A stretch of DNA of 64,000 nt from a virus: IMG/VR virus record IMGVR_UViG_3300022752_000020, positions 32,001 to 96,000 of that record; one strand, written 5' to 3'. Positions 20,623-43,497 of this stretch are shown one piece after another. The first letter of the stretch is position 1, and every line of letters starts with the position of its first letter. The translations under genes and the position numbers were made by a program. The notes below the pieces were generated by a model. It did no database searches, was not told where the DNA came from, and saw nothing but the letters and a program-made list of their open reading frames with translations.

Positions 20623-23600
20623 TTAACTCTGCAATGCTAGGATGTATGGTGTCACTACCCCTAACAAGCTCTTGTTAAATGCTCTACCTATAATACTACC
20701 TGAGTCACGCTTGATTGTTAAGTCTGGACCAATTCTAAAGTCACCCTTTTCATCTGTACTGGTGAAGTTAATAAATCCGCCCTTGTCACTTACAAGCTGA
20801 TTCTGGGGTTTTGGTACACCGCCGTTGTATGGTAAAGCACTATCTACGTCAATACCAGTTCCAACCCACTCTAGTGTGTGACCAGTTGTAGTAATTGTAC
20901 TAACTTGGTGGAATGTTGCGTATGTATTATCATTTACAGCACTTGTAAATGTTGCATCTAGCTGTATTACACTGATGTAACCATTTGTCAAGATATCTGT
21001 GAATGCATCAAACAATATTCCTAGGTTAGTAACTTCACTACTTGTAGCCGCTGTATTACTCTTGTCTTGATCTACATAGTTTTGGAAAGTCACTATTGGT
21101 TCGTTTCTTACAACTTTTGCAGCCAATGCACCTAGATATACAAAGCAAGCCACTGTAGCACTCTTACTATCAGCTGGGATCTGGAAACGACCACCACTGA
21201 AGTACTGTTCAGCAGCAAACTTGGTTCTACTATTACCACCATAGATCAAGTCATATGCTACAGCATCAATTGTAAGTCCTACATCACGCTTACATGTGTC
21301 TTGTAAGTAGCCAAATCCAGCATATGTTTCATTGATGAATGTAATTGTCTCTGCTGCGATTCTAGGAATAGCATCACGAGCTACTGCACGGATAATCAAG
21401 TATTCTGGATCAACTGTCTTATTAGCAATAACATCTGGTTCAACTAGAGCTGGTAATGTTTGACCTTTTAGTGCTTGATTAACATAACCAGCCTTTGTTA
21501 CAACATTTGAAATTGTTGTAGCATCAGAGACCACTGTTGTTGTTACTGGGGTTTGATTATTGCCTGCTGTTTTTGCTAGACCAGTTGTACCATTATTCAT
21601 TGTACCATCTAGTACATCTTCAAGGATAGCTTCTAATCTCTTGAATCCGCCAATAGTTGGAGCCTTTGTTGCTAGAGGAATAACTAGTCCGCCCTTGTAA
21701 GCATATTGTAATGCTACTTCTCTTGACTCTTTATTACCACCATGTAGTGCATCAAATGCTAGACCTTCTACAACAAATCCTACATCCTCTTCACACTTGG
21801 CTTGTCTGTATACAAAGAACTGAATCTTTGTACCAGTACCATCACCATTTGTATCCATGAATGCTTTCTTGATTTCAATACTTACTAGTGACTTCAAGCT
21901 CTGATTACCTGCCGTTCCACTATCAGCATCTGTCTTCAATCCTAATAGAGTAGCATTTCCACCTGTTGTTGGATTTGCTGGAGCTGCTATAGAACTTGCG
22001 GCTGCTGCTGTTAGAGCTGCTGTTAAATCAGCACTATCAATAATATCAATGATTCTATCAATAGCATTGCCAGCTTGTGTTGACTTAGTATTATCTCCTG
22101 CACCTGCTACACGACTTGTTATACTTTGTAACACTGTATAAGCACCATTATTTAATAGAGCCTGTACCACTGTCTTGAGTTGAGCGTAGGCTGCTAGAGT
22201 AGCTTCCTTCTCATTCTCACCACCTGTTATATCTGGATCATCAATATCAGTTGCATGTGTACCTAATGTTAGGCTGTTACCCTCCCAATATGCTAGACCA
22301 GCTTCAGTTGTAGCATTATTGCCACCATATGCAATATCATAACGTAGTGCATCTAATATTAGAGCAACGTCACGCTCACACTTGGCCTTGTTATAATCAA
22401 GCTCTGGATAATTTCTATCAATGAAAGCACGTACTTCAGCTTTGACAAAGTCATAGTTATTAGTTATAACAGTTGTTGCTGCATTAGCTGTGATACTTAA
22501 TGCTGGAGCTGCAACTGCACCACGATTCACGATATCAATGATTTCATTCATTCTAGCACGAGCTCTAGCAAGAGCTGTTGCATCTCCGCTTAATGCTGTT
22601 GAAAACACTTTCTTGATAAAGTATAAAGCACCAATTGTAGCTGATTTTTGCTCTGCTGTTACAACTTTACTATAACTTCTTAAGTATGACAAGCCTGCTG
22701 TTACACTTCTATAGTTAGTATTATTAGCAACATCTAATGCTACACTATCTACAATAATGTCAACATCACGTTCACACTTACCAACAATAGTTGTTGCATC
22801 GCCAGCATTACCTGTATAATCAAGATATGGTCTGCTGTTCATATACTCGAACACTTTCCATTGATTTAGTTCAGCTGCATTGGCTAATATTAGTGCTGCT
22901 GGAGCATATGTGCCATAACCATCTGGTAAGTCAAGAGCTGTCATACTACTAAAGCTTTCAGCAGTTACTACAGCAATGATTATATCAATCAATGTGTTTG
23001 CATCAGCTGATAATGTACCTTGTGTCAAATACCCTGTAGCTATAGTATTACCTCCTGATATACTATTACCACCAGTTGTGAATGGAGCACCTCCAGTACC
23101 ACTAGCTAATACAACTTTTAGAGCTGCCAACACTGCTAACATTGTAGCCTTCTCACCTGTAACATTACCAAGTGTTAGAGCATTACCTGTAATATATGCA
23201 CGGGCAGCAACTCTTGTAGCAGTATTACCACCATGATATAGATCATGAACAATTGCATCTACAATAAGCTTAATATCTCTTTGACATTCATCTAATTTAC
23301 CTGCTGCTGTTAGAGCTTGATAGGTAGAATTAAATTGATCCTGCATATATTCTGACAGTGCATCACTAATTTTATCTTTTGATGCTGTTAGAGCTAGTGT
23401 ATCAATCTGAGTTTTTTCAGCTGCTGCTCTGCCTGTGCTTGCTGCTGCTAGATCAACTGTGACATTTGCATTTGACTCTTCGTTAAGAATATCAATAACT
23501 ACCTGTAGTCTTGAACGAATTCTTGCACCTGCATCAGCATTGGTACTTACTAGATCACCAAGAGCTGCTTTTGCATACTCAAGAGCAGCAATGTGTGCCC

Positions 23601-26600
23601 ACTTCTGACGTGGTGTCTTGGCTATTGCATTGCTTGCAAGATTACGTAAGTATGCTTCACCAGCAGTCTTTGATAAGAAGTTACTGCCTGTAGCCACATC
23701 ACCGTAAATAGCCTCTAGTATATAACCTAGATCACGCTCACACTTCAATACATCATATACAAAGTATGCTCTATTATTGACCCAACGAATTACCTTATCC
23801 TGAGCGTTCTTCTTATTGCTTAGTAGAACATTTCTTGATACTTCTTTAGCAGTATCACTGCCTAGTAGTTCTGGATACTCGATAGCTGGTAGAGCACTTA
23901 AACCACCTGTGATTGTAGCTCTAATGATCTCAATCAATTGGCCTACTCTTGTAGCTGCTGTTACACCATTTACTGTACCACCAATATTAGCTAGTAAATC
24001 TATCTGTGTCTTTAAGTAGTTATAAGCTGCTAGAGTAGCTGTAGTCTCATCACTGTCAGGTCCTAGTTGGTTCGCTGTACCTACATAGTAGCTGCGAGCA
24101 TTGATTACAGTTGCCCAGTTTCCACCATGTGTTAGGTCATAACGTAATCCTTCTAGGATATACTGTAAGTCTCTTCTACATTTAGCCACAGTGTAAGCAC
24201 TTGGAGGATTATTAGCACCAATCCATGCGATAACATCATTAATAATAGTATCAATAACTGTTCCAGTAGAACCATTAGCACCTGCTAATGTTGTTGCTGT
24301 CCATTTTGCTGGGGTTGGAGCTGTACCGTAGTTCAGTGCTGGAACAGCATATTCACCACTAGCAGCAGCAGTTGGAACACCACCTACTAGACTTGAACCA
24401 TATAATACCTTGGTTATTGTCTCGATTCTGTTCTTAACTTCTGTACTGGCAGTTGCATTATTACCAACATAATTACCTAGTAACTGCTTGAGATACTTCA
24501 TTGCTAGTAATGTGATATGCTTCTGTTCTGCATCAAATACTTTTACAGCATTAGCACGGAGATAACCTTGAGCAGCACGAACTGTCATATAGTTACCACC
24601 TTGTACCATATCATAACCAACAGCTTCTGTAATAAATCCTACATCACGATAGCAACTAGCTTCATTGTACTGATACTGATTATAAGTTGCATTTATGTAA
24701 GCACTAATTTCCTTCTGCAAGAACGTCTTATTATTGATTAGAGCCTTAGCAGCCTTTTGTGCATTAGTTGTTGTAGCACTTGGCCAATTGATTGCTGGTG
24801 TTGCTTGATCATTTAGACCATTCTGGATTATCTCTAGGATAATGTCCATGTTAGCTGTCACACGCTCGTATGCAATACTATTTGTAGCACTAATACTTTG
24901 TAGTCTATCCTTCAAGTATGTAAATGCTGCTATAGTTGCTGACTTTTGTTGTTGAGTTGCTAGAGCATCTGCATTGAGCATTACTGCATTTCTCCAATAG
25001 CTACGTCCTGCTGTTACGCTACGGAAGTTGCTGTTCAATAACATATCCCAACGAACTGCATCAATTAACAATCCTGCATCACGTACACACTTATCCTTCT
25101 GAGTAGAAGTCATTAAGCCTGGGAAATTGGTATCTACATAAGCACCAACATCTGTCTTAATTGTGTTAGTCTGTAGTCTCATTGCTACACTGATTTCCTG
25201 TAGAGGAACTTCAGCCCAGCTTGCATCAGCTACTACTTCCTTAACACTGGTGTCAGCAGCACTAGTGATCAACTGATTAACTGTGTCAATCAATGCATCA
25301 ACGGCTGTCTTAACAGCAGTACCATTTCCAGCACTGCTTAATTCAGCTTTGATATATGTACCTAACTGTGTAAATGCTGTTTTTGTTAGATTTATATGAG
25401 CAGTAGTTCCTACTTCATTAGGTGCTGTACCTGTTGGGCCTAACACTGCACCACTGTAATAGCTCTGACCTGCTACCCATGATTCCATATTACCACCATA
25501 AGTTAGGTCAAATCTAATTGCATCAATCAAGTATCCAACATCACGTAAACAAGTTGCTTCATTATATCCTAAGAAGCTTGTTGTTTGTGTACCTAACCAT
25601 GTCTTCATTGAAGCTAGTAGACTATCCTTCTTGGCAGCAATTGTAGCTACTGCTGCTTGCCAGGTTGGATTGTAAGCGTTACGTGCATATGTATCTGTAC
25701 CATAATCCATTGTACCACTTACAGTTACTCCATACTCTAATACATCAATTACAACATTCATTGCAGCTCTTACTCTATTACTTGCTGTTTGATTGTTACC
25801 TGTTACAGCCAATAATAGTGACTTCAAGAATCTAAAGCTGGCTAGTGTTGCTTCTTTTTGTTGTAGTGTAGTAAAGTTTCCTGTTACTACTTGACTACGT
25901 AGGTATGCACGACCAGCTGTCCAGCTGCGGAATACATTACCAAACATCATGTCATAACGTACTGCATCAACTACATATCCAACATCACGCTGACACTTGG
26001 TTTTATCATAACTAAATCCTTGGAATGTAGCATCAATATAGTCAGTTACCTGTAGTCCCAAGCTTGTTTTACGATCTAACATTGTACTTGCGAACAATGC
26101 TAGATTATTGTCAACCCAACTTGTACTTGGTTTTGTAGCTGTTGGCTTATTAGTTATTGTACTATCCAAATAATCTCTTACAATGTTTACAAGAGCTTTA
26201 GCTTGAGCAGCAGCTTCAGCACTACCTGCATTTAAACTCCTAATTTGAGCAATGCTGTGACTTGCACTTTCATTAACATCTGTGTTCAATATCACTTGTT
26301 CGATCACTGTTGCTATTCTACTAAATGCATTTTTAGTAGCTGTTAGTTGTGCGAGTGGTAAACTATCAGGTACTGCTGCATCTGGGCTGTTAGCCTCATA
26401 GTATGCAATAGCTGCTGTTACAGTTTCTAAACTACCACCGTAGGTTAAATCATATAATACAGCATCTAAAATCAAGCCTACGTCACGCTTACATTTAGCT
26501 ACATTATATCCAGCTGGAGGACTATTCGCCTGTACAAATCTATAAGCTTCTTCAATTAAGTATTCAAAGTTAGCTTTAACAACATTTGTAGCGTTCAAAT

Positions 26601-29600
26601 AACCAATGTCCACTGCATTTGGTGTAGCACCATATGGAGTTGAAATTTGTGGTATAGCTCCAGTACCTGTATTTAGAATATTTAGAACTAGATCCATTAG
26701 AGCTGCAACACGATCTTTGGCTAAATCATCGCTCTTAACGATTTCATCAAGAGCAACTTTAACTACACCAAAGGCTGCTATTGTAGCTGGCTTTTGACTG
26801 CCACTACCATTACTACCATTTGTGAATGTACCAGTAAGCACTTGACTACGATAATAGCTACGAGCAGCAACGATAGTTCTAAAGTTACTGTTAAACATCA
26901 TATCCCAACGTACAGCTTCAACAACCAACTGTACATCACGCTGACATTTTTCTATGTTATAGTTTCCTGCTAGTACTGGGAAGTTAGCATTCACATAGTC
27001 TGTTGTAGCTTTAGCTACTGTAGCAGCTTCAGATTTTAACTTGTCGCTGAATACATATAACTCACTATCAACCCAACTTGTGTCTGCTTCAACTTTAATT
27101 GGATCTTCAATCTTTGGATCAATGAAACTGATTATTTGATCAACCAATGTAGTTGCTGTAGCTACTGCACCACCTGCTGCTGCTGTAGTAATCAAGTTCT
27201 TAAAGTAAGCATATGCATCTGCTGTACCTAATTTTTCTGTACCAAGAGCTTCACCATCATAGTAGGCCTTACCTGCTACAATAGTTTCTTGATTACCACC
27301 ATAGGTCAAGTCATATGTAATTGCATCTAATATAAACTTGATATCTTGACGACACTTGGCCTTATTGGCGTTGCTATTTTGCGTCCAATATGTTTCAAAA
27401 GTTGTGTCAAAATTACCGTTTTTATTAGTAACTTGATCATCAATCCACTGTATTAGATCTCTTTCAAGAGTCAGTCTAGCTTGATTAATCTTATTTCTTG
27501 CTGTGATTCTTGATGTTTGATCAGCTACAGCAGCATCATAATCAGCTTGTACATCAAAGTCATTTACATCTAATACTGGAGTTGGATGGATATAGAACGA
27601 TGCGGTGCTATTCTTAACTACTGCACCACTAGCATGACTAAATCCTTGTCTTACTGTGGCACCGTTGATAGCACTGGCAGCAGTTGTAGTACCACTACCT
27701 CTGGTTAAACCTACAAATGTAGTAGCAGTTTTACCTGTGTATGTAATCTGCTCTGTACCAATTACTAGGAAACCTTTATTTGGGAATCCAGTTGTGCTGG
27801 CCACTGTGATTGCTGTGACACTAGCATCTATGGCACCATTCAATGTTGTTGTAGCAGCACCAACTGCTCTTGTACATCCAGTAAATGTATTTGATGTTTT
27901 ATTTGTATAACTAATAGTTTCATCACCAATTACTATACTACCTGCACTTAAGAAATTAGCTGTACCATTATTCACTGTTGTAATTGTACCAACTACAGCA
28001 TTGTTAATAGCACCTAGTGTAGTAGTTACATAACCATCCTTGGCTGGTGTATCTAGACCTGTATCTAAATTAAAGCCTAGGCTTGTTAATGTAGCATTAC
28101 CAGCATCACCTTGTAAAATTGCTAGGAAGATATCAAATAATCTTTCTGCTCTTTCACGTATAGCTATTGTCTTAACTTGACCACTACCACCTGTTGTTGT
28201 ACTTGGAGTACCTGTAGCAACAAACACTTGGTTAGCACTATTACTTAAAGCACCTAACTTGGTATAATCTGTGATATAACGAGCAGTACCTGTACCTGAA
28301 CCAATATCAGCAGCAGTAAATTCATTACCAGCTGCGTAGGTAATACCTGTTGTACCAGCAGCACCATTAAAGTCTGTAATACCTAGTAATACAACCTTAT
28401 ACTTGCCACCAACTACAAAGCTACCTGCTGTTTGTACATCAGCACCTTCTGTTACAATCTTATACTCAACACCTGGTCTCAATGCATCAGCAGCAACTTT
28501 AGCATCTAGAGTTTGTGTATCTAACAAGCCCTGTGTAATAACTTCATCTAATACATCTAGACTTGGTCTTACTTCAAATGTTAGACCTGCTGTAGTACCT
28601 GGAGTTACTCTAATTGGAGCACCATCAATAGTTTCACTTAGCTGGAAACTGGTTGTTGTTGGTGTACCAATGATGTAGTAGGTCTTTGGCTGTGTAGCAA
28701 TGTTGCTGAAATCCTCAAGAGTAGCTGTACCTGTTTGATATGTACCTGCAACACGAACTGGAAGGTCTTTTCTTAATAGACCTGCTCTTGTAGTTGTAGT
28801 ATCTGTACATGTAAACTTGCCAGTAGTTCTTGTGAATATTAGACCAGTTGTGGTATTATTAGCACCAGTAATGGTTGTTACAGCAACAGGATTTGTAGCA
28901 GTTGAACTCAACTTCAACAGTGTTAGTGTTGTAGTATTTGCACCTTTGGTGATTGCACTGACTTTAAATGTCTGTGGTGCTGTGAATTGAGCACCAGCAG
29001 TTACAGTATCATCATCAATGCTTGCTGTACCTGTGGTTACTGTACCTGTTACAGTGATATAATCAGTAGGAGCAATATCTACGGCTGGATTAGGGAAAGT
29101 AATCTGACCAGTAGTATTGTTAATTGTAACAATACTGCTTGTAGCACTTTGAACAAATGTAATTATATCATTAGCGCCATGTGCTTCTGCCACTGTACCG
29201 CCAGTAGCTCTTGTTACACCAGTAAATGTTGTTGCACCTTTACCTGTATATGTAAAGAACTCTGCTCCAATACTAATTGTACCAGCTGTTGGGAATCCAA
29301 CTGTGCTGGCCACTGTTATTGTACCTGCACCTGCTAGTGTATCACCAGATAAAATACCTGTGCTTAGAGTAGTTGTACCAGCATTAAGCACTGTACTATC
29401 TACTGTAACACCACTTAATTTCTTACCTAAAATTCTTTCCTTTAATTCTTGGAATGCTTTTAGGTTAGCAGCAGCTTGAGCACCACTGTTTACCACGTTA
29501 GCAAAACTTCTGCGATAGCTACGTCCTGCACTGATTGTTCTAAAGCTTGTACCAAACATCATATCATAGCGAATAGCATCTAGTACTAGTCCAACATCTC

Positions 29601-32600: not shown

Positions 32601-35600
32601 TACCGCTGACCACTTGAGCAGCATCACTGGTCTTGTAAAGTACTAATAGGTCATTAGGGAACTTGAGATCATTTGGTACCCAACCATAGCTTGGCTCAAC
32701 AAACGCTGGAGCAGCTACAGCAAAGCTACCATCTTGATTACACAAGTTTCTAATTACCCATGCTAGACTTTGAGCTGTTTGAGCAGCAGCACTGCTACCT
32801 GCATCACCTGGGCTCTGTTTAGCAATAATTCTTAAATCAGCTACATCATCACCTTGTGCTACTAGTTTAACTAGATTAGATAGACGAGTAAATGCAGCAA
32901 TGCTGGCTGTTAGATCATCACCACTAATTGACTCAGTTTGAGATCCTACAAGTTCTCCACTTGCAACGCCGCCAATATAATATGCACCACCAGCAATAAT
33001 ACTTTCCATATTACCGCCATAGGTCATATCATAATATAGTGCATCTAGTATAAGATCCATATCTCTCAAGCATTTTGACTCTACGAAATCTAATGTAGCA
33101 AATGCTGCATCACTTAAGATGTATTTGAGTATTTCAGCTTTTAAGAACTCTCTATTACTTTCAATTAGGTTACGTGCATAACCATAGCTGGCCAAATAGG
33201 TTGTATTATAACCTGTTGGACTTGGGCATGAATATGCTGGGATAACTACTTCACCTTTTGTTACAATATTAATTAATAGATCCATTCTGTCTGCTACACG
33301 CTCTGAAGCTACAGCAACATTCTTTGTTAGATCAACTAATTTTTCTTTTAATAATTTAAATGCTTCAATAGTAGGTACTTTTTGATCACCAACTACCTTG
33401 CTAGCCTGTGCTCTATAGTAAGCACGAGCAGCAGTGATAGTTCTGAAGTTACTATTAAACATCATATCATAACGTACTGCATCAATAATGCTTTCAATAT
33501 CTTCTTGGCAATCAGTTACACTATATTGTAACTCTGGGAAACGATCACTAATATATGTTGTGATAGCTGCCTTAATAGTTGCTGCATTTGAATTCATTAG
33601 TGTACTGCTGGCCACTAGATCAGGATCAACCCAATCTGTTGTAGCTAGTGTTTCGTCAGCTTTAATGCGAGTAAATGTTAGTCCAGTTGTAGATCCTGCT
33701 GTTGTTCCAATCGCTGCATTTGCCAATGTTTGTAGAGTAAATGTAGTTGTACCATTTGTTGCACTGATTTTGTAAGTGCCATTAGTCACTACACCATTTC
33801 CACTATTTGTACCACTAATTGTTACTTGATGTCCAACAACTAAAGTAGTTGCGGCACATTGGAATTGGCCTGCTGTGCCTGTAATAGCGACATTTGTAAG
33901 TGTGGTATTATTAAGGAAACTATTTACATCTAAAATACGATCTCGAGCAAAATCACCAGCACCACTGCTACCAGCACTACCGTTCTTATTTTGTTCCTCT
34001 GTATAAAGAGCAACTTTTTCTAGTACCCAATCTCTTAATTCTTCATACACAGCAATACTTGCATCTTTTTGGTTAGCTAGTACATTTTTTGCACCAGTTA
34101 CACCACGATAGTAAGCATTAGCAGCAAGTTGTGTACGGTAATTTGTACCAAACATTACATCAAATCTTACTGCATCAATAACTGCATCAATGTCCTGCTC
34201 ACATTCAACTTGTAGAGTTTGACCAGTACTGGCTTGAGTTGTTGTATATCCTAGTCCTGGGAACTTATCAGCCATCAATGCTGTTACAGCAGCCTTAACA
34301 TCTACTCTAAACTGTGCTGCATTAATTGCTGTGTTAAGAGTTTGTAGTGTAGTATCAACCCATGTAATTACTGGAGCATCTTTAGCTGTTGCTGTTGCAC
34401 CATCTGTAATAATATCTACAAGTAGTGTCTTAACTAATTCTCTAGCTTTATCGCTGGCTGTGCCTGTAGCATCACCTACACCAACACGCTGTACTTCACG
34501 ACTCTGCTGTTGATTTCTGGTAAATGTTAGACCAGTAGTTGTACCACTTGCACCTGGAGCTGTTACAATAGCTGTACCATCAACATTGGCTAGTCTAATC
34601 TCAGTGCTACTTGTTACTGCAACAACCTTATAAGTCTTAATAACCTGTGTAGCAGGATCTGCACCACCGACTACTAGACCTGTAATTGTTGCGGTACCTG
34701 TATAAGTAGCTGTCTTAGTTGCTGTAATTAAATCACCAACAATCAATGGATTGCTTGGAGCAGTTAGAGTAAATGTACCATCTGTTGTAGCAGTTTTTAC
34801 TGTCATACCTGCTAGAGATTGGCTAATTACTCTTGAACCACTTGTCACAAACTTCAATAAGTTACCTAAGAATCTAAATGCTTGTTGAGTAGCATTTAAT
34901 TCACCAGCACCCAATGTACCTTGAGGACCGCTACCATTAGCATAGTAACTATCAGCAGCGATAAATGTTGCTGTATTACCACCATAGGTTAAGTCATACA
35001 TGATAGCATCTAGAACTAGATCTACATCTCTTTCACACTTAACTTTATTATAATTTGCTGGAGGACTATTAGCATCAATAAATGCTGTTGTCTCTGCAAT
35101 TAAGAACTGCTTATTGCTAGCAATCATCTTTACTGCATTGAAATAGTCTGTATTACCAGCATGAGCACCTGTGGCTGTTGGTTTTGGCATTACGAATGGT
35201 TTTCTTGGAGTAAATCCTGGACCATCTAAAATGATTTTATTCAACAAGTCAAAACTAGCATTTATTCTATCTTTGGCTTGGAATTGACCACTTGGCTTAA
35301 CATCTTTTAGCTGTACAACTTGATCAACAACTTCTTTTAGTCTTTCATAAGCAGCCACTGTTTGAATAATCTGCTTTGGAATTGTTGATTTTGGTGTTAC
35401 TGCACCATCAAAATATGCGATAGCTGCCTGTGTTGTATCAACATTACCACCGTATAACAAGTCATAGCACATGGCATCAATTAAGAAACCAACGTCACGA
35501 GCACACTTGTCTTTGTTATAGGCAAAATTCATATCAACAAAGTCACTTACAGCATTCTTTAACTTGTTAATTGTAGCTGTTGTTGCTAACAATGTATTAA

Positions 35601-38600
35601 ACTTAAGAATATTAGCATCTACCCATGATGTTACTGGTGTTGATGGACTAAATGTGTAGGTTGTTGGATCATTAATATAATTTTTAATAATTGTTACAAG
35701 AGTTTTTGCCTTATCACCACTGGTTCCATTTCCAGCATTGGCTGTTACAGGTTGATTTTGTGTGTAAGCATTGCCATCAGCATCATTATTTGTTGTTAGA
35801 GCCGTACCTTCAGCAACATCTTCAACTAGATCTGCTAGGAAGTTATAAGCAGCCACAGTAGCGGCTGTTTCACCTGCACCTAATGCTAGATTTACACCAC
35901 TTGTACCACCATAATATGCCTTAGCAGCAATAATAGTTTCTAAATTACCACCATATGTTTGGTCATAATAAATTGCATCTAAGATATATTCAACATCTCT
36001 GCGACATGCTGTTTCATCATAGTCTAAACTTGGATAATTTAATGTAATATATGCAACTACTCTATCCTCAATCCAAGCACGATTTGCCTCAATTAAGTTA
36101 CGTGCTTTTAGTCTTTCTGCATTGCTGGCATTATCAGATCCGCTTGTTGGATCTGTTATAATAAATGCTGGCTCAACTGCTAGACCATTCTCAAGTATCT
36201 TAAGAATAGTATCCATGCTACGGCTTACACGCTGAATACTAGCACTTTCTGCTGTAGTTGGATTGTCTGGATCTACTGCTTTAACAATTTCTAATAGTTT
36301 TCCTTTTAAGTATTGGAAACTGGCCAATGTAGCTGTCTTTTGATCTTTAACTACTGTACTAGCCATAGCACGATAATAGCTACGACCAGCTACAATACTA
36401 CGGAAGTTACTGTTAAACATCATGTCATAGCGTACAGCTTCAACTACATAGCCTACATCACGACGACATTTTTCTCTATCATAGCCAAATAGAACATAGT
36501 TATCGTCTACAAAATCTGCAACTTTATTTTTAACATCTTCTTTATTAGCTTGTAATATATCAAAAGATTTCTTAAGAGCTGTATCAATCCAATCTAAACT
36601 AGGTACACTTGGCACTGTGGCTAAATCGGCTACTGGTGGACTCTCAGCCACGCTGTCATCAATCAATTTGATGATTAAATCTACGCATGTACCAATTTCT
36701 TTGGCTGCTGTAGCACTACCATCACTGCCGTTTGGACTACGAACCTGTGTAGTAATATTACCAACTGTTGGTGTCCATACAAGGTCTTGAGCTACACTTT
36801 GTACAACTAACTTCAAGTATTGATATGCACGTAGAGTAGCACTAACTTCATCCATTTGAGTACCGCTTGGATCTAGTTGGCTTAGTGTGCCTACTGCATA
36901 GCTTAAACCTGCTACCTTACTTTCTAGTGTACCACCATAAGTTGTATCATAAAATAGTGCATCAAGAATCAAGTTTAGATCACGACGGCACTTGTCTACA
37001 TCAAATCCAGCTGGGTTAGCATAAGTTGAACTGGTTGCACCTGGAGTAATCTTTTCAAATCTCATTGTAGTTGTGAAACCAGATGAGCTTGTTGTAACAA
37101 CTGGGCTACCGTCTAGGTTAACAATCTTGAATCCTGGTGTATATTCAGTGGCTGTACCTGGATTAGCTCTAGCTTCAACTGTAGCTACCTTGTACACGCT
37201 TGGGCTGTTATAACCACTAATACTTGCACCAGAGAACATCTTACCACTAATTCTAATCAAATCACCAACTGCTAGAGTTGTGAATTCTGATTGTCCAGTT
37301 ACTGGGTTAACACTAAATGAGCCATCTGTTGAAAAAGCACCAATAACACCTTTGAACTTTACAACTCCTTTGACTAGTTCTAATCCTGGTGTGTTAATAT
37401 ATGTTAGAACATCATCAATAATAAACTCTCTATTCTTCTCAACTAGGTCACGAGCACGTTTGTACTCAATGGCACGACCTTTCTCTGGGAATGGCATACG
37501 ATATTTTGGAACTGTTTCTAAACCTTTATCCACAATATCAATAATAATATCCATATTGCTTTCTATACTGTTAACTGCTAATGAGTTAGTCTTAACTAAT
37601 TCTTTAGCTAATTTCCTCAAGTGTCTGAAAGCACCCACTGTGGCTAGTTTTTGATCGCCTTTAACCTTAGCAGCATTAGCTCTATAATAAGCACGACCAG
37701 CACTAATACTACGGAAGTTGCTGGTAAATGCTAGGTCATATGATAATGCATCTACAATTAGTTCAACATCTCTAGCACACTTATCTCTATCAAACTCATT
37801 TAGAGTAAAGTTAGCATCAATGAATCCTACAATTTCATCTTTGATGAATTCAACATTATTACGTAGGATATTAACTGCTGTTTTACGATCTAGGTCTTCC
37901 TCGTTATTTCTTGTTGGGATTGGGAATGTTAATGCTGTACCATAACCATTGATTGGATCATAGCCATAAGCAACACCATTCACTGTAACCTTAGCATTTG
38001 TGATAATATCACCATCTTCATTAACTCTTGCACCGTCTAAAATATCAATAACAATATCAAATCTTGTACTGATTTCTTCTTTAGCACTTGGAGCAACGAT
38101 TCTCTTTAGTGTAATATTTTTGGCAGCTTTCAAGCTGGCTACAGTTTGTACTTTTTGAGCACCAACTACTTCGCTAGCATAAGCACGTAGGTAACTGATA
38201 GCAGCATTAATAGTCTTATAATTACTGCCAAAAACCATGTCACTTAAAATAGCGTCTAAAATTAAACCAACGTCTCTATAGCACTTTGGCTTATTAAAGC
38301 TAAAGTTATCAAAGAAGCTGTTAGCCATAAACTTGATTGTTTCTGTTTTAATATCTTCCTTGGCTGCTAGAACTGCATCACGAATAGCCTTATATGTTGT
38401 AGGCTGATATGTAACAGTTGGATAACCTGTTGTAGTTGTACCTAATGTTAGATCTGTTGCTGTGTTAACACGAGCAAACTTAGTATCACCATCACTAATT
38501 GTATACCAGTTAATGTTAATATATGCTAACATTTCAGCACGGATGAAATCTCTGTTAGCCATCAATAGATCAAAGGCACGTATTTTGTTTGTATCTGTGC

Positions 38601-41337
38601 TGGCAACAAGATTAATAGGCTGCTTTAGTCTTTGAACACTATCTTCACTGTTGTTTGGACCTTCTTGTAAGATCTCGTTAATAATGTCAATTAAATTACC
38701 AATAGCTACAACTTCTGTACTAGTAGCTGGAGGTAAATCTGTACGTTGTGGTACAGCCTCTTGCCATGGATTTGGAGTTGGGCTGCAAGTAATTACATCA
38801 CGTACAAGTTCCTTCATGTACTTGTAAGCATTTACTGTCTGCTTGATCTGATTTGGTAATACACTCTTTAATACATTTGTGTCTTCATTAAAGTCAAAGT
38901 AATAAATGCCTGCTGTAACAGCTTGACGATTACCACCGTGTACAAGGTCAAAACAGATACTGTCAATAATGTAACCTACATCACGGCTACACTTAACTCT
39001 ATCATAATCAAATCCTGGGAATGCTCTACCTAAATAACTGATAACGTCATCTCTAATTGCTTGTTTATTTGTTTGTAGTGCTGTAAATGCAGCTTCAAGA
39101 TCAGCATCATTTAGACGCTTACCATTTGGCTGAATAAAATCACTTGTTCCTACGATTTCATTATCTAGTCCTTTTAAGAACAAACTAAACAAGGCACCAA
39201 GTCTATTAACCTGTGTTTGAGTAGTTGCTACTAGACCATTAGCTTCTTTAAACTGAGTTATTCCAGCTTGAGCACTTTCAATGGTATCTAAAATTACCAC
39301 ACGCTGTGAAAATAATTGAGCACGACCATAGGCATCAACAGTTGCTGGGACTTCTTCAGCTGCCTTAAGTTGGCTTAGACCATTTGCATAATTGTAATAA
39401 CGCTTGGCAGCATCTACTGTTTGGCTATTACCACCATAGATCAAGTCATAGCAAATTGCATCAATTGTATAACCAATATCTCTACCGCATGTAGCCTGCT
39501 TGTCTGCATCAAAGCCATAAATTACAATCTGTGGCCAGTTTTTCTTAATATAGTCAATAACTTCAGCTACAACAAATTTCTTATTAGCCTGTAAGTTCTT
39601 TACTAGATTAACTACACTTGCTTCTGTATCCTGTAAAGCTGGATATGCTAGCTTGTAATTATTTGTATCTCTATAATCTAAATAAGTTGTTAAAGTTGCT
39701 AGACCACCTGATGACATTGCTGTAGTAAGAATATCAAAATTGCTCTGTACTCTTGATAATAACACTGCATCTTCTTGCACAATAGGAGCAATTTGATCTC
39801 TTACAAACTTATAAGCTTCAATAGTTGGTACTCTTTGTTCTTCACTAATAGTATATGTTCCAGCAACGGCTGTCAAATATGTAATAGCAGCCTTGATAGT
39901 TCTATAGTTTGTACCAAATATAATATCATCTGCCACTGCTTCAATAACTAGTCCAACATCACGCTTGCACTTTGAACTTACAAAGGCTAAAGTTGGATAA
40001 TTCTTTTTCAAGAAAGCAATAGCAGCATCTTCAATTTGAGCTTTTCTATCTAATATAGTTTGTCTTAATACCTTATATTCTGGTTCTGCTGCATCTAGAT
40101 CAGGACCAACAATTAATGTTGGACTTAATGGACCTTCTGCTACAATTTTACTGATGATGGCAAATTCATCTTTTACAATACGCTTGGCTGTGGCTGTAGC
40201 ACTAGCAGTAGTCAATACACTGGCGGCAGTAACTTGAGCACGTTGAATAGCTGCTGCTGTTTGAACTTGTTGTTCAATACCAGTTGTAATATTATCTTTG
40301 GCCCAATAACGTAGGCCAGCAAATGTACTTTGTGTAGTACCTTCATATAATAGGTCAAATGCTAGACCATCTACTACAAGACCGTTATCTCTATCACATG
40401 TTGTTTGGTTGTAATTGGCAAAAAGTACACCATCACCAATGTTAGGACGTCTTGCTAAATTCTTAAATGTGATCTGACGACCAGCTGACTTCTTAACAAT
40501 ACCACGATATAATGGATCACTGGCACCACGACTAACTAGACCGTAGTTACCAAATGAGCTGTTGGACAAGTTAACTGAACAGAATCCACCGTTCTCACAC
40601 ATAAATGATATGTCACAGCAAATTGTAAAGATGGACACTAACTGTGTATTACCTCTGTTCAACATGTGAATACCAATACCACCTTGGTTATACTGTGTAA
40701 ACGCATCACAAACCATTGAACGTAAGCCTGTGGTCAATGCACCGTCAACACGCATACCTGTACCAGTAGTTGTAATACTTGTAACAGCCTGTGTGTATGG
40801 TGATGTTACGATTTCACCAGCACTACCGTCTGGTGGGAAACATACCGCAGCACTTGGTGCAATATGTCCTTTAAAGTTCATACAGAAGATGTAAGCGCCA
40901 TTGTATACCCAGAAGATATCCTTGGTTGGATTCTTTGGACGAACTGTGGTGTTACGCAAGTTGTCACCAACAACTGACACACGAGCTGGAACACGTAGTG
41001 GGTTATCTTCAATATACTCCCCACTCTTTAAGAATATAGTTGTGCCAGGAGTCGCTATGCTCAGTGCCTTCTTTAGTGTCAAAAAAGCTTGACCTAATGT
41101 CTTTCCGCTGTTACTATCATCACCGTTCTTGGCCACATAAAGTACATTAGGTACTTCCATTGCTCCAATTTCAATAATTTTCTGAATAGCAGCGAAACCT
41201 TCTGGTTGCTTGATTTCTTGTTTTGTAAACAGTTTACCATCGGCTGTGTTAAGTGCTAATTCGCCTAGGTCAATGCTATCTAGTGATGGTACTTTGCCAG
41301 GTATATCACTACGCTTAAATCTAATATTTGTGCTCAT
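20623..41337 (-). CDS. Giant virion fibre protein (6904 aa): gp37-like N-terminus, pectin-lyase-like beta-helix, 34 phycobiliprotein/globin-like CxxD repeats, inserted beta-domains
   Basis: N-terminus IRFKRSDIPGKVP..LGELALNTADGKLFTK resembles the T4 gp37 N-terminus. VLYVAKNGDDSNSG..TIFLKSGEY..VSVVGDNLR is a beta-helix cap. 34 copies of C-x-(R/E/Q)-D-h-x-x-h-h-(D/E). SD-like AAGGA and TAAATA upstream. Confidence 0.85.
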   Translation of the reverse strand: MSTNIRFKRSDIPGKVPSLDSIDLGELALNTADGKLFTKQEIKQPEGFAAIQKIIEIGAMEVPNVLYVAKNGDDSNSGKTLGQAFLTLKKALSIATPGTTIFLKSGEYIEDNPLRVPARVSVVGDNLRNTTVRPKNPTKDIFWVYNGAYIFCMNFKGHIAPSAAVCFPPDGSAGEIVTSPYTQAVTSITTTGTGMRVDGALTTGLRSMVCDAFTQYNQGGIGIHMLNRGNTQLVSIFTICCDISFMCENGGFCSVNLSNSSFGNYGLVSRGASDPLYRGIVKKSAGRQITFKNLARRPNIGDGVLFANYNQTTCDRDNGLVVDGLAFDLLYEGTTQSTFAGLRYWAKDNITTGIEQQVQTAAAIQRAQVTAASVLTTASATATAKRIVKDEFAIISKIVAEGPLSPTLIVGPDLDAAEPEYKVLRQTILDRKAQIEDAAIAFLKKNYPTLAFVSSKCKRDVGLVIEAVADDIIFGTNYRTIKAAITYLTAVAGTYTISEEQRVPTIEAYKFVRDQIAPIVQEDAVLLSRVQSNFDILTTAMSSGGLATLTTYLDYRDTNNYKLAYPALQDTEASVVNLVKNLQANKKFVVAEVIDYIKKNWPQIVIYGFDADKQATCGRDIGYTIDAICYDLIYGGNSQTVDAAKRYYNYANGLSQLKAAEEVPATVDAYGRAQLFSQRVVILDTIESAQAGITQFKEANGLVATTQTQVNRLGALFSLFLKGLDNEIVGTSDFIQPNGKRLNDADLEAAFTALQTNKQAIRDDVISYLGRAFPGFDYDRVKCSRDVGYIIDSICFDLVHGGNRQAVTAGIYYFDFNEDTNVLKSVLPNQIKQTVNAYKYMKELVRDVITCSPTPNPWQEAVPQRTDLPPATSTEVVAIGNLIDIINEILQEGPNNSEDSVQRLKQPINLVASTDTNKIRAFDLLMANRDFIRAEMLAYININWYTISDGDTKFARVNTATDLTLGTTTTGYPTVTYQPTTYKAIRDAVLAAKEDIKTETIKFMANSFFDNFSFNKPKCYRDVGLILDAILSDMVFGSNYKTINAAISYLRAYASEVVGAQKVQTVASLKAAKNITLKRIVAPSAKEEISTRFDIVIDILDGARVNEDGDIITNAKVTVNGVAYGYDPINGYGTALTFPIPTRNNEEDLDRKTAVNILRNNVEFIKDEIVGFIDANFTLNEFDRDKCARDVELIVDALSYDLAFTSNFRSISAGRAYYRANAAKVKGDQKLATVGAFRHLRKLAKELVKTNSLAVNSIESNMDIIIDIVDKGLETVPKYRMPFPEKGRAIEYKRARDLVEKNREFIIDDVLTYINTPGLELVKGVVKFKGVIGAFSTDGSFSVNPVTGQSEFTTLAVGDLIRISGKMFSGASISGYNSPSVYKVATVEARANPGTATEYTPGFKIVNLDGSPVVTTSSSGFTTTMRFEKITPGATSSTYANPAGFDVDKCRRDLNLILDALFYDTTYGGTLESKVAGLSYAVGTLSQLDPSGTQMDEVSATLRAYQYLKLVVQSVAQDLVWTPTVGNITTQVRSPNGSDGSATAAKEIGTCVDLIIKLIDDSVAESPPVADLATVPSVPSLDWIDTALKKSFDILQANKEDVKNKVADFVDDNYVLFGYDREKCRRDVGYVVEAVRYDMMFNSNFRSIVAGRSYYRAMASTVVKDQKTATLASFQYLKGKLLEIVKAVDPDNPTTAESASIQRVSRSMDTILKILENGLAVEPAFIITDPTSGSDNASNAERLKARNLIEANRAWIEDRVVAYITLNYPSLDYDETACRRDVEYILDAIYYDQTYGGNLETIIAAKAYYGGTSGVNLALGAGETAATVAAYNFLADLVEDVAEGTALTTNNDADGNAYTQNQPVTANAGNGTSGDKAKTLVTIIKNYINDPTTYTFSPSTPVTSWVDANILKFNTLLATTATINKLKNAVSDFVDMNFAYNKDKCARDVGFLIDAMCYDLLYGGNVDTTQAAIAYFDGAVTPKSTIPKQIIQTVAAYERLKEVVDQVVQLKDVKPSGQFQAKDRINASFDLLNKIILDGPGFTPRKPFVMPKPTATGAHAGNTDYFNAVKMIASNKQFLIAETTAFIDANSPPANYNKVKCERDVDLVLDAIMYDLTYGGNTATFIAADSYYANGSGPQGTLGAGELNATQQAFRFLGNLLKFVTSGSRVISQSLAGMTVKTATTDGTFTLTAPSNPLIVGDLITATKTATYTGTATITGLVVGGADPATQVIKTYKVVAVTSSTEIRLANVDGTAIVTAPGASGTTTGLTFTRNQQQSREVQRVGVGDATGTASDKARELVKTLLVDIITDGATATAKDAPVITWVDTTLQTLNTAINAAQFRVDVKAAVTALMADKFPGLGYTTTQASTGQTLQVECEQDIDAVIDAVRFDVMFGTNYRTQLAANAYYRGVTGAKNVLANQKDASIAVYEELRDWVLEKVALYTEEQNKNGSAGSSGAGDFARDRILDVNSFLNNTTLTNVAITGTAGQFQCAATTLVVGHQVTISGTNSGNGVVTNGTYKISATNGTTTFTLQTLANAAIGTTAGSTTGLTFTRIKADETLATTDWVDPDLVASSTLMNSNAATIKAAITTYISDRFPELQYSVTDCQEDIESIIDAVRYDMMFNSNFRTITAARAYYRAQASKVVGDQKVPTIEAFKLLKEKLVDLTKNVAVASERVADRMDLLINIVTKGEVVIPAYSCPSPTGYNTTYLASYGYARNLIESNREFLKAEILKYILSDAAFATLDFVESKCLRDMDLILDALYYDMTYGGNMESIIAGGAYYIGGVASGELVGSQTESISGDDLTASIAAFTRLSNLVKLVAQGDDVADLRIIAKQSPGDAGSSAAAQTAQSLAWVIRNLCNQDGSFAVAAPAFVEPSYGWVPNDLKFPNDLLVLYKTSDAAQVVSGTSYPGRSSLQSQVTEYIRQQLKMARVNNTSAPASNQEGTGPLAQVTVTRDGTWTDWFGATTVKPGVSGTNNLVNGQSYVIHTVGNTNWSAIGSAGAQTAGTEFVYNNALITGTTGRVVKVLKASQTVAGKRYKIKTIGTTSWTTYATTPVGAQDDVFIRNTTPLNAVAGEGTVYEMFTYDIDKCERDVGLVIDAVRYDMMFNTQFRTITAARSYWRQQANAALATGSTSLSNYPQTKPTELLFEFLKTRMRTLGETYENAAGYAAGGGGIPGIVANSVAYTRIGTLMDYIIDATQAANEAALLAALPQKPYSLPLPGGGLNNSRDEGYRLARDLIEENREFIKAELIAWIDQQKRENREGFASPFVFNRTKCKEDIDFILDAVYYDLTYGGNMESYTAGLAYYSGVTVNDSVQSDEKEATIRAYNHLGYILADVAKNVTVKSVQSELEQIRGTAGSVETAQKLSQLIDIVINVVKGGVKQVPVREEPNFLAGDETLAYVRIAVQEQKRELQARIADYIDSFILQYNTEKCARDVGLIIDAAMYDLVLNSNFQSVTAGSVYLQKAAQVVTSTQIGPQLQAIKFIRDQVIAVSQKPPLVKNEAAIARITNLFDLMFDIIDKGVEVAPSIVNTAPLGAAFNPNAVNAAASLIANKEFLKEEVVAYITANYKTYDQSRCSRDVGLIIDAALYDLLLGTNYNSVKAGLSYRRAASSLVLTDQLQETLGGIDFAKDKLVELLDDAAAIASVTQSFELISSIIGGGSVPKSPAMPIPGGSVYALPRPAGIRTRNPKYALAATKLRNEKANLKAAVSAWITTQINDSAAGQPLDSIWYTFTYTGTRVTKCEEDVGFIIDAIAYDLTYGGNMETLNAGYAYYEGTGDGVTDSLQDAEVKPTMAAYEFLAEQVRAILLADITIASAEISNEARDLILLVRNLIDARNNAIPGVTAPGQIWVDPLLQEISSTLNNNKSIYQDNIIDYVNNINTFTNNVVQIPNNYDVEKCRRDVGLVLDAIRYDMMFGTSFRTISAGRSYRRSFANVVNSGAQAAANLKAFQELKERILGKKLSGVTVDSTVLNAGTTTLSTGILSGDTLAGAGTITVASTVGFPTAGTISIGAEFFTYTGKGATTFTGVTRATGGTVAEAHGANDIITFVQSATSSIVTINNTTGQITFPNPAVDIAPTDYITVTGTVTTGTASIDDDTVTAGAQFTAPQTFKVSAITKGANTTTLTLLKLSSTATNPVAVTTITGANNTTTGLIFTRTTGKFTCTDTTTTRAGLLRKDLPVRVAGTYQTGTATLEDFSNIATQPKTYYIIGTPTTTSFQLSETIDGAPIRVTPGTTAGLTFEVRPSLDVLDEVITQGLLDTQTLDAKVAADALRPGVEYKIVTEGADVQTAGSFVVGGKYKVVLLGITDFNGAAGTTGITYAAGNEFTAADIGSGTGTARYITDYTKLGALSNSANQVFVATGTPSTTTGGSGQVKTIAIRERAERLFDIFLAILQGDAGNATLTSLGFNLDTGLDTPAKDGYVTTTLGAINNAVVGTITTVNNGTANFLSAGSIVIGDETISYTNKTSNTFTGCTRAVGAATTTLNGAIDASVTAITVASTTGFPNKGFLVIGTEQITYTGKTATTFVGLTRGSGTTTAASAINGATVRQGFSHASGAVVKNSTASFYIHPTPVLDVNDFDVQADYDAAVADQTSRITARNKINQARLTLERDLIQWIDDQVTNKNGNFDTTFETYWTQNSNANKAKCRQDIKFILDAITYDLTYGGNQETIVAGKAYYDGEALGTEKLGTADAYAYFKNLITTAAAGGAVATATTLVDQIISFIDPKIEDPIKVEADTSWVDSELYVFSDKLKSEAATVAKATTDYVNANFPVLAGNYNIEKCQRDVQLVVEAVRWDMMFNSNFRTIVAARSYYRSQVLTGTFTNGSNGSGSQKPATIAAFGVVKVALDEIVKSDDLAKDRVAALMDLVLNILNTGTGAIPQISTPYGATPNAVDIGYLNATNVVKANFEYLIEEAYRFVQANSPPAGYNVAKCKRDVGLILDAVLYDLTYGGSLETVTAAIAYYEANSPDAAVPDSLPLAQLTATKNAFSRIATVIEQVILNTDVNESASHSIAQIRSLNAGSAEAAAQAKALVNIVRDYLDSTITNKPTATKPSTSWVDNNLALFASTMLDRKTSLGLQVTDYIDATFQGFSYDKTKCQRDVGYVVDAVRYDMMFGNVFRSWTAGRAYLRSQVVTGNFTTLQQKEATLASFRFLKSLLLAVTGNNQTASNRVRAAMNVVIDVLEYGVTVSGTMDYGTDTYARNAYNPTWQAAVATIAAKKDSLLASMKTWLGTQTTSFLGYNEATCLRDVGYLIDAIRFDLTYGGNMESWVAGQSYYSGAVLGPTGTAPNEVGTTAHINLTKTAFTQLGTYIKAELSSAGNGTAVKTAVDALIDTVNQLITSAADTSVKEVVADASWAEVPLQEISVAMRLQTNTIKTDVGAYVDTNFPGLMTSTQKDKCVRDAGLLIDAVRWDMLLNSNFRSVTAGRSYWRNAVMLNADALATQQQKSATIAAFTYLKDRLQSISATNSIAYERVTANMDIILEIIQNGLNDQATPAINWPSATTTNAQKAAKALINNKTFLQKEISAYINATYNQYQYNEASCYRDVGFITEAVGYDMVQGGNYMTVRAAQGYLRANAVKVFDAEQKHITLLAMKYLKQLLGNYVGNNATASTEVKNRIETITKVLYGSSLVGGVPTAAASGEYAVPALNYGTAPTPAKWTATTLAGANGSTGTVIDTIINDVIAWIGANNPPSAYTVAKCRRDLQYILEGLRYDLTHGGNWATVINARSYYVGTANQLGPDSDETTATLAAYNYLKTQIDLLANIGGTVNGVTAATRVGQLIEIIRATITGGLSALPAIEYPELLGSDTAKEVSRNVLLSNKKNAQDKVIRWVNNRAYFVYDVLKCERDLGYILEAIYGDVATGSNFLSKTAGEAYLRNLASNAIAKTPRQKWAHIAALEYAKAALGDLVSTNADAGARIRSRLQVVIDILNEESNANVTVDLAAASTGRAAAEKTQIDTLALTASKDKISDALSEYMQDQFNSTYQALTAAGKLDECQRDIKLIVDAIVHDLYHGGNTATRVAARAYITGNALTLGNVTGEKATMLAVLAALKVVLASGTGGAPFTTGGNSISGGNTIATGYLTQGTLSADANTLIDIIIAVVTAESFSSMTALDLPDGYGTYAPAALILANAAELNQWKVFEYMNSRPYLDYTGNAGDATTIVGKCERDVDIIVDSVALDVANNTNYRSVTAGLSYLRSYSKVVTAEQKSATIGALYFIKKVFSTALSGDATALARARARMNEIIDIVNRGAVAAPALSITANAATTVITNNYDFVKAEVRAFIDRNYPELDYNKAKCERDVALILDALRYDIAYGGNNATTEAGLAYWEGNSLTLGTHATDIDDPDITGGENEKEATLAAYAQLKTVVQALLNNGAYTVLQSITSRVAGAGDNTKSTQAGNAIDRIIDIIDSADLTAALTAAAASSIAAPANPTTGGNATLLGLKTDADSGTAGNQSLKSLVSIEIKKAFMDTNGDGTGTKIQFFVYRQAKCEEDVGFVVEGLAFDALHGGNKESREVALQYAYKGGLVIPLATKAPTIGGFKRLEAILEDVLDGTMNNGTTGLAKTAGNNQTPVTTTVVSDATTISNVVTKAGYVNQALKGQTLPALVEPDVIANKTVDPEYLIIRAVARDAIPRIAAETITFINETYAGFGYLQDTCKRDVGLTIDAVAYDLIYGGNSRTKFAAEQYFSGGRFQIPADSKSATVACFVYLGALAAKVVRNEPIVTFQNYVDQDKSNTAATSSEVTNLGILFDAFTDILTNGYISVIQLDATFTSAVNDNTYATFHQVSTITTTGHTLEWVGTGIDVDSALPYNGGVPKPQNQLVSDKGGFINFTSTDEKGDFRIGPDLTIKRDSGSIIGRAFNKSLLGVVTPYILALQS
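20980..40415 (-). repeat. Array of 34 diverged, roughly 130-150-aa helical protein repeats with invariant Cys and Asp
   Basis: Counted by eye in the translation: 28 CxRD plus CEQD, CQED, CKED, CEED (x2) and CRQD. Confidence 0.9.
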
Positions 41338-41370
41338 TTATTTTCCTTTAACATGAAAATTCATACTTTA

Positions 41371-41376
41371 TATTTA
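41371..41376 (-). promoter_or_regulatory. T4-late-like promoter core TAAATA upstream of the 6904-aa gene
   Basis: Intergenic; the same motif recurs upstream of many genes in the window. Confidence 0.6.
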
Positions 41377-41397
41377 CCAAAAATGCAGGAAATACTG

Positions 41398-43485: not shown

Positions 43486-43497
43486 TATCTATCCCTA

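Follow-up and report, generated by a model that had tools for sequence, protein, structure and literature searches.

In phycobiliproteins, a cysteine is bonded through a thioether to ring A of the bilin, and an arginine and an aspartate hold the pigment. The corresponding C-x-R-D (CXRD) sequence is the bilin-attachment motif of the family (PMC10151467). Phycobiliprotein paralogues outside photosynthesis, the bilin biosynthesis-associated globins (BBAGs), occur in heterotrophic bacteria whose genomes contain a heme oxygenase and a ferredoxin-dependent bilin reductase (FDBR) of the PcyA/PcyX lineage; the CXRD-bearing types, BBAG-1 and BBAG-3, need no lyase for bilin attachment (Rockwell, Martin and Lagarias 2023, PMC10151467). 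In 2020, ho1 and pcyX-like genes were described from large lake phages (bioRxiv 10.1101/2020.02.13.942896), and in 2024 the heme oxygenase and bilin reductase genes of phages with non-photosynthetic hosts were called "still enigmatic", with a benefit on which one could "only speculate" (PMC11480375). In the present study, a 64,000-nucleotide stretch of virus DNA (the window; positions 32,001 to 96,000 of the IMG/VR record IMGVR_UViG_3300022752_000020) was analysed. A single open frame on its minus strand encodes a giant fibre-like virion protein of 6,904 amino acids, most of which is an array of 34 CXRD-bearing globin domains similar to those of phycobiliproteins.

The repeats share with phycobiliproteins and the bilin-binding domain of ApcE a globin-like fold over helices A-B-E-F-G-H and, with the phycobiliproteins, the helix E motif K-C-x-R-D-(V/I)-G-...-Y-x-L-x-x-G-G, the Cys of which falls on Cys84. 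As in ApcE, the stretch from helix B to helix E is enlarged by a long insertion in some phage copies, and self-attachment would be needed, since no lyase is available. Phycobiliproteins, however, are free subunits of 160 amino acids, whereas the fibre unites 34 copies in one chain. The repeats also differ in a shorter B-E loop, in the additional invariant Asp(+14) and Tyr(+30), in the lack of the X/Y hairpin and in being phage-encoded, among virion genes and in proteins matching tail-fibre families. Their carriers among the jumbo phages possess no psbA/psbD and probably have non-cyanobacterial hosts.

BBAG-1 and BBAG-3, compared here by their published description, share the phycobiliprotein-type fold and CXRD with the repeats. 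For the genomic association with heme oxygenase and FDBR the picture is mixed: both are encoded by the relatives G001-G005 of the window's phage, but not adjacent to the repeat genes, the 45% complete record of the window contains neither, and the jumbo contig G007 and Pelagibacter phage Mosig are exceptions. BBAGs, however, are small stand-alone cytoplasmic proteins of reductase operons, their genes lying beside the reductase, while the phage domains are strung in tandem along a structural protein, and in G005 the cassette is far from the fibre gene (about 340 kb versus about 105 kb). Marine and freshwater phage cassettes of the hemO-pcyX/pcyA type (PMC11480375; bioRxiv 10.1101/2020.02.13.942896) are represented in the G001-G005 and G011-G018 contigs. 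The papers describing them name no phage-encoded acceptor, and the repeat fibre offers a candidate, but Mosig has the cassette and no such fibres.

The giant fibres of T4-like cyanophages (S-PM2p091, S-PM2 T4-GC 734, SRSM4_214 and large open reading frames (ORFs) of Syn9, P-HM1/2 and P-SSM4) belong to the same K-C-x-R-D repeat family. They contain fewer repeats per protein, mixed with other domains, and their phages have bilin-making hosts and cpeT in place of hemO-pcyX. The annotations of these fibres are silent on any relation to globins or phycobiliproteins. The literature search, in which subscription journals were thinly covered, found no paper linking hemO-pcyX or cpeT to a virion protein and none on phycobiliprotein-like or globin domains in phage fibres.

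Phycobiliprotein-like repeats of the giant fibre protein

The main parts of the gene and the repeats used for modelling are as follows.

20623..41337, minus strand: gene of the giant fibre-like virion protein, a single open frame of 6,904 amino acids
40438..41337, minus strand: N-terminal part of ~300 amino acids, non-globin, fibre-type; residues 1-202 match phrog_17885 "tail fiber protein" (1.5e-63) and phrog_3442
21046..40443, minus strand: array of 34 CXRD globin (phycobiliprotein-like) domains, residues 299-6764, from the local hidden Markov model (HMM) domain table, the 34-unit alignment and the motif list
39241..39702, minus strand: repeat 3 (Cys617), the best single PF00502 match, with residues 570-639 on profile positions 26-98
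35248..35715, minus strand: repeat with Cys1945, "GGN" sub-type, first structure model (AlphaFold2, Foldseek, VIA-wide)
36211..36678, minus strand: repeat with Cys1624, "MMFNSNFR" sub-type, second structure model (AlphaFold2, Foldseek, VIA)

An earlier, sequence-only reading of the window had described this gene as encoding a phage fibre with 34 phycobiliprotein-like domains, each with the bilin-attachment Cys. The C-x-x-D scan gave 35 sites in the whole protein, 34 of them in the repeat context K-C-x-R-D-V-G-x-I-x-D-A-x-x-Y-D and mostly 145-170 amino acids apart along the array; the site at residue 2866 is a chance match outside this context. The Cys and the Asp(+3) are kept in every repeat and the Arg before the Asp in 28 of the 34, which are the counts the earlier reading had given, and the two repeat examples that it quoted were located at 35446-35514 and 25054-25098. 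Its statement that about three-quarters of the array Cys belong to the motif also agrees with the count (34 of 45 within the array, 34 of 52 in the whole protein), and six of the non-motif Cys are grouped in the N-terminal ~300 amino acids. Alignment of the 34 units revealed four invariant columns: the Cys, Asp(+3), Asp(+14) and Tyr(+30). Two sub-types of the repeat can be distinguished, "YDLTYGGN" (n = 19) and "YDMMFNSNFR"-like (n = 15), and their alternation is fairly regular, most markedly so toward the C-terminal half of the array. The domains could thus pair as pseudo alpha/beta units.

Judging from sequence profiles and structure models, the repeats are very probably homologous to phycobiliproteins. 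The sole significant Pfam family was PF00502 "Phycobilisome protein", with a marginal score for the N-terminal half of the protein (22.6 bits versus a cut-off of 22.2). In a six-frame search the region of repeat 3 matched this family with an E-value of 8.6e-5, and six of the 34 single repeats did so at E<=1. The same family scored above the cut-off in the S-PM2 and S-RSM4 fibres and reached 30.6 bits in a fibre of G005. The NCBIfam matches were limited to CpeA, C-phycoerythrin alpha (1.1e-6), and phycocyanin alpha. When the profile of the 34 repeats was compared with all PDB sequences, 31 of the 32 matches were alpha chains of phycocyanin or phycoerythrin (best 8.9e-4). A profile of 109 repeats, including 84 with less than 45% mutual identity from 79 other phage contigs, gave phycobiliproteins in 36 of 37 cases, with beta chains and allophycocyanin now included (best 5.7e-4). 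In both PDB searches the motif Cys aligned on Cys84, and the alignment of Cys, Arg and Asp with Cys84, Arg86 and Asp87 is that proposed from the sequence, where the alpha-phycocyanin motif had been given in a form that agrees with the PDB chains. With E-values of about 1e-3 to 1e-8, the sequence matches to phycobiliproteins are marginal, which is a point against the proposal; the sequence result draws its weight from the fact that nearly every match is a phycobiliprotein. The ESM Atlas yielded no usable match for the repeat.

Template-free AlphaFold2 models of two repeats, one of each sub-type, are all-helical: the Cys1945 repeat with pLDDT 85 and pTM 0.72, and the Cys1624 repeat, from a 109-row alignment, with pLDDT 87 and pTM 0.79. 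A Foldseek search of single-repeat models, the check suggested in the earlier reading, placed phycobiliproteins at the top and recovered the globin fold; for both models the top 45-50 PDB matches consisted almost entirely of phycobiliproteins together with the ApcE bilin-binding domain, smURFP and photocobilins. The best Foldseek match of the Cys1624 model was the ApcE bilin-binding domain (TM 0.56-0.61). A VIA-wide scan of the Cys1945 model, which is independent of Foldseek, ranked the ApcE bilin domain first with Z 11.7, followed by allophycocyanin, a photocobilin and sensor globins, while for helical proteins a Z below ~13 may reflect a common arrangement. A second look with VIA at the Cys1624 model gave Z 13-14 (up to 14.1) and a root-mean-square deviation of 2.3-3.1 Å over 120-133 residues, with all of the top 50 matches being phycobiliproteins. 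The X-Y helix hairpin, which the sequence-only reading had reported to be missing, is absent from both models; helix A is preceded there by coil, by a Pro-rich linker or by the final helix of the repeat before it. Thus, profiles from three libraries and two structure models bear out the domain assignment made from the letters, and homology is the economical reading once the structure matches are considered together with the sequence signal at the same helix.

When 1.84 billion cluster representatives were searched exhaustively with the HMM, 1,536 proteins matched at E<=1e-3; the 150 best-scoring ones are 844-6,382 amino acids long and contain 5-37 repeats each. No stand-alone relatives of a single repeat, 85-273 amino acids in length, were found, and in a scan of one genome per prokaryote species the sole match was a 4.8-kb contig, JBDNIA010000452.1, of a Crocinitomicaceae metagenome-assembled genome. 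For these two reasons the repeat family is essentially phage-only. The contig is probably a mis-binned phage fragment and possibly hints at a host of some family members.

Across 1,615 repeats of 151 proteins, the Cys is present in 95%, the Arg in 95%, the Asp in 99%, Asp(+14) in 100% and Tyr(+30) in 98%, while the remainder of the domain is only ~16-25% identical. Cys makes up 0.69% of the family residues, and 53% of all Cys stand in the motif column. In the repeats without the Cys (n = 77), the Arg is found in 53% (versus 97% of those with the Cys), the Asp in 77% (versus 100%) and Tyr(+30) in 70% (versus 99%), whereas Asp(+14) is retained in 97%. Cys, Arg, Asp and Tyr(+30) are lost jointly and therefore appear to form one functional unit, and Asp(+14) looks structural. 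The column statistics of the family showed no conserved proximal-His pattern of heme globins.

The 6,904-amino-acid protein is predicted to be a virion fibre from its PHROG matches and gene context. It matches tail fiber, short tail fiber and virion structural families (phrog_5342, 2e-143; phrog_4527, 2e-139; phrog_701), in line with the structural fibre role claimed earlier. The gene lies within a structural module, which includes neighbours with matches to virion structural PHROGs and, at 50033-51211, the gene of the major head protein. The cyanophage homologues carry a tail-fibre annotation and are located beside gp12 and baseplate genes. Outside the regular repeats, the following parts of the protein were delimited.

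27571..29352, minus strand: Thr/Gly-rich non-globin insert of 594 amino acids, residues 3996-4589, between repeats 20 and 21 (gap in the HMM table; composition from the translation)
36733..37554, minus strand: split globin domain (residues 1262-1323 and 1429-1535) with an insertion of ~105 amino acids between helices B and E; half-matches to HMM positions 1-54 and 54-142
38041..38691, minus strand: second globin domain interrupted at the helix B-E loop (N-terminal half-match, insertion, remainder)
20626..21045, minus strand: C-terminal 140 amino acids, non-globin; the last 110 residues match the end of phrog_3442

Both interrupted domains are broken at the helix B-E loop, which is the site of the ApcE loop insertion.

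Bilin genes in jumbo phages and cyanophages with fibre repeats

The IMG/VR record of the window is 159,920 bp long and estimated to be 45% complete. As the sequence-only reading had stated, the window contains no bilin genes, and the search of the genome that it proposed had a divided outcome: no heme oxygenase, FDBR, CpeT or psbA/psbD was found in the 159,920-bp record, but the closest complete relative encodes a heme oxygenase and PcyX. This relative, G005 (399,796 bp), is syntenic with the window's phage at 74-84% nucleotide identity. By synteny the record corresponds to ~16-176 kb of G005, in which the fibre gene is located at about 105 kb and the cassette at 340 kb. The absence of bilin genes from the window and the record is uninformative, since the position of the cassette falls outside the covered part of G005. 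The G005 FDBR belongs to the PcyX clade (PcyX structure 5owg, 2.7e-66), and G005 is predicted from its genes to encode the full route from heme to phycobilin.

The best counterparts of the capsid protein of the window's phage (66-70%) are those of Proteobacteria-infecting jumbo phages. In three of these related cultured phages, Phosso, Vibrio 2.275.O and GAP32, neither the repeats nor an FDBR was found. In IMG/VR, a query with the sub-type core alignment gave at least 582 loci sharing the repeats, and the ten longest contigs were examined. Heme oxygenase and FDBR genes lie side by side in five of them (G001-G005); among the repeat-bearing contigs at least 90% complete the cassette is present in two of three, and among those at least 85% complete in three of four. 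The reverse sampling started from at least 570 loci chosen for PcyX alone, and all eight contigs longer than 120 kb were examined (G011-G018). Repeats occur in seven of these, and the exception is half a genome. An IMG/VR sample anchored on the major capsid protein, intended as a 2x2 control, consisted almost only of short fragments and was not used.

No psbA/psbD was found in the ten longest repeat-bearing contigs, and the jumbo relatives probably infect non-cyanobacteria. The "host or phycobilisome mimicry" and "antenna" uses put forward in the earlier reading therefore look unlikely. The ten relatives contain no phytochrome PHY domain either, and PF00502 was detected only in their giant ORFs, save for two weak matches in small frames. 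In G005 (804-3380 of the cassette locus), G001 and G002, a same-strand Hsp70-like fragment, an Hsp20-like gene and a small ClpS-like ORF precede the heme oxygenase and PcyX genes, and the stop of the ClpS-like ORF overlaps the start of the heme oxygenase gene. The bilin genes stand within a chaperone/protease-adaptor block and thus not among the structural genes.

As was found by the tblastn search among deposited phages, the repeat is present only in Synechococcus phages and other cyanophages (40 records), with five K-C-x-R-D copies in S-PM2p091 and seven in SRSM4_214. The repeat HMM matches S-PM2, S-RSM4, P-HM1, P-HM2, P-SSM4 and Syn9, with E-values down to 6e-27, and all six phages encode cpeT. 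No repeats were found by the HMM in P-SSM2, and no cpeT. In S-PM2 and S-RSM4, which represent two cyanophage genera, cpeT is located 1-1.5 kb upstream, on the same strand, of the giant CXRD-globin "short tail fiber" gene, and the stretch from cpeT to the fibre gene (NC_006820 163952-177267 and NC_013085 162121-177047, respectively) lies between a baseplate hub gene and gp12. In P-HM2 and Syn9, cpeT is not adjacent to the repeat-bearing fibre gene. The RefSeq record of S-PM2 places sixteen tRNA features inside the giant fibre coding sequence (NC_006820 165928-177267), which bears a locus tag of the tRNA style, S-PM2t009; this looks like a coordinate or annotation error.

According to published phenotypes, light is required for adsorption in S-PM2, P-HM1 and P-HM2, whereas P-SSM2 can adsorb in the dark; for S-PM2 the light requirement was published to be independent of host photosynthesis. 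The three light-dependent adsorbers carry the repeats and the dark-adsorbing P-SSM2 does not. With four phages of known phenotype, seven genomes and related lineages, this correspondence is a lead rather than a test.

Neighbourhood of the fibre gene

The region immediately upstream of the giant gene contains putative expression signals.

41338..41397, minus strand: TAAATA-type box and Shine-Dalgarno sequence ahead of the gene, read from the sequence

The sequence G-TAAATA-TAAAG is located ~40 nt before the start, and AAAGGA stands ahead of the ATG; the TAAATA-type box is a predicted promoter. The T4 late-promoter consensus TATAAATA has one site in the 64-kb window versus 7.9 expected from shuffles, and the window's phage probably uses a shorter late box than T4. 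On both sides of the giant gene there is a similar two-gene pair (15536-19056 and 41398-46350, both on the minus strand), in which one protein begins with phrog_9417 (469 and 695 amino acids) and the other ends with phrog_8578 (703 and 950 amino acids). This suggests a duplicated fibre-accessory module.

Possible ligands and role of the conserved site

The fibre is a candidate home for phage-made bilins, the purpose of which has hitherto been enigmatic. That the domains carry covalently attached bilin is, in our estimate, evenly balanced between yes and no, the genomic context now adding to the support from the motif. The proposal can be set out as follows. In a jumbo lake phage of the T4-like type, not yet cultured, a virion fibre that is made late would have a shaft of 34 globin domains homologous to phycobiliproteins and BBAGs. 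During infection, the phage heme oxygenase would open host heme to biliverdin, and the PcyX-type reductase would reduce biliverdin to a phycobilin. The phycobilin would then be attached to the fibre domains, probably without help, in the manner of BBAG-1/3 and ApcE; self-attachment is proposed because the phages encode no known lyase. Cyanophages would draw the bilin from the host, and the phage CpeT may deliver it. Each fibre chain of a released virion would thus bear dozens of bilins. Light sensing that gates adsorption would be the most plausible use, with a structural cofactor or photoprotection as alternatives. A light-gating role is nevertheless doubtful and is advanced tentatively; the broader proposal, that fibre-bound bilins serve as adsorption-gating photoreceptors in many aquatic T4-like phages, both marine cyanophages and the jumbo lake-phage clade with non-cyanobacterial hosts, is equally speculative.

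Several observations weigh against bilin attachment. Gln or Glu replaces the Arg in six of the 34 repeats. The B-E loop, which in phycocyanin helps to cover the bilin, is ~10 residues shorter in the repeats according to the PDB alignments. No lyase of the CpeT, CpeS or HEAT_PBS type was found in the ten jumbo relatives; therefore, attachment in these phages would have to be autocatalytic or need an unrecognised factor. G007, 93% complete, has the repeats and neither heme oxygenase nor FDBR. Mosig, which infects a heterotroph and which we take to be the only cultured non-cyanophage with hemO-pcyX, encodes heme oxygenase and PcyX, and no repeats were detected in its first 100 kb, including the structural genes (two HMMs with filters off and a motif scan), or, by six-frame search alone, in its last 41 kb. 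The cassette-bearing contigs form one broad clade, so that their counts do not represent independent events. Finally, we know of no report of a pigmented cyanophage particle, although the virions of S-PM2 and Syn9 have been purified and analysed by mass spectrometry.

Some of these points would be expected if the domain were a pigment-free building block of the fibre, a rigid helical bead in which C-x-R-D is kept for folding or inter-domain packing. G007 and Mosig demonstrate that repeats and cassette are separable, and the missing lyases, the shorter B-E loop and the lack of any known report of coloured virions fit such an apo-globin as well. Packing, however, hardly explains a lone Cys conserved at 95% amid ~20% identity in a protein family with 0.69% Cys, nor its loss together with Arg, Asp and Tyr(+30) while the structural Asp(+14) stays. 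The co-occurrence with bilin synthesis in psbA-less phages would also have to be a coincidence. We consider this explanation unlikely, while giving it some weight.

Another ligand in the globin pocket, either biliverdin bound non-covalently, as in BBAG-2 and photocobilins, or heme, is quite improbable. In its favour, the best structural matches include photocobilins and sensor globins, biliverdin is bound by BBAG-2, which has no CXRD (PMC10151467), and FDBR-less phages of the G007 type could take biliverdin from a host heme oxygenase. Against this, the conserved CXRD is a signature of covalent attachment, the associated PcyX-like reductase makes reduced bilins, and the repeats do not have the conserved proximal His expected of heme globins. 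It is very improbable that the conserved Cys forms disulfides or other covalent links between chains or domains that toughen the extracellular fibre: such a role would suit one conserved Cys per domain of an extracellular protein, and covalent cross-links are known in phage particles such as HK97 capsids, but it leaves unexplained the equal conservation of the Arg and Asp on the same helix turn, the identity with the bilin site of the homologous family and the link with heme oxygenase and PcyX, and the Cys of the homologous fold would be expected to face a cleft and not a symmetry axis.

Among the bilin-binding globins, the fibre represents a new variant, arranged as a tandem array and borne on the virion. 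It widens the range of the phycobiliprotein/BBAG superfamily to virion structural proteins and assigns a domain to giant phage proteins that had been "hypothetical", in at least 1,500 sequence clusters. With respect to the open question of hemO-pcyX (PMC11480375), the genomes concerned encode, in the fibre, a phage protein that has canonical bilin sites by the dozen; if the attachment proposed here is true, the phage hemO-pcyX cassette and the phage cpeT gain a phage-encoded target. Domains that attach bilins by themselves would also be a possible source of small fluorescent tags. The cultured cyanophages with light-dependent adsorption, S-PM2, P-HM1 and P-HM2, carry the repeats, which brings this trait within reach of bench experiments, and a photoreceptor in the fibre, if it exists, would explain the light-dependent adsorption of S-PM2 and P-HM1/2. 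Pigment and light response, if confirmed, would constitute a new kind of system, and these phages would be the first virus particles with a light sensor of their own.

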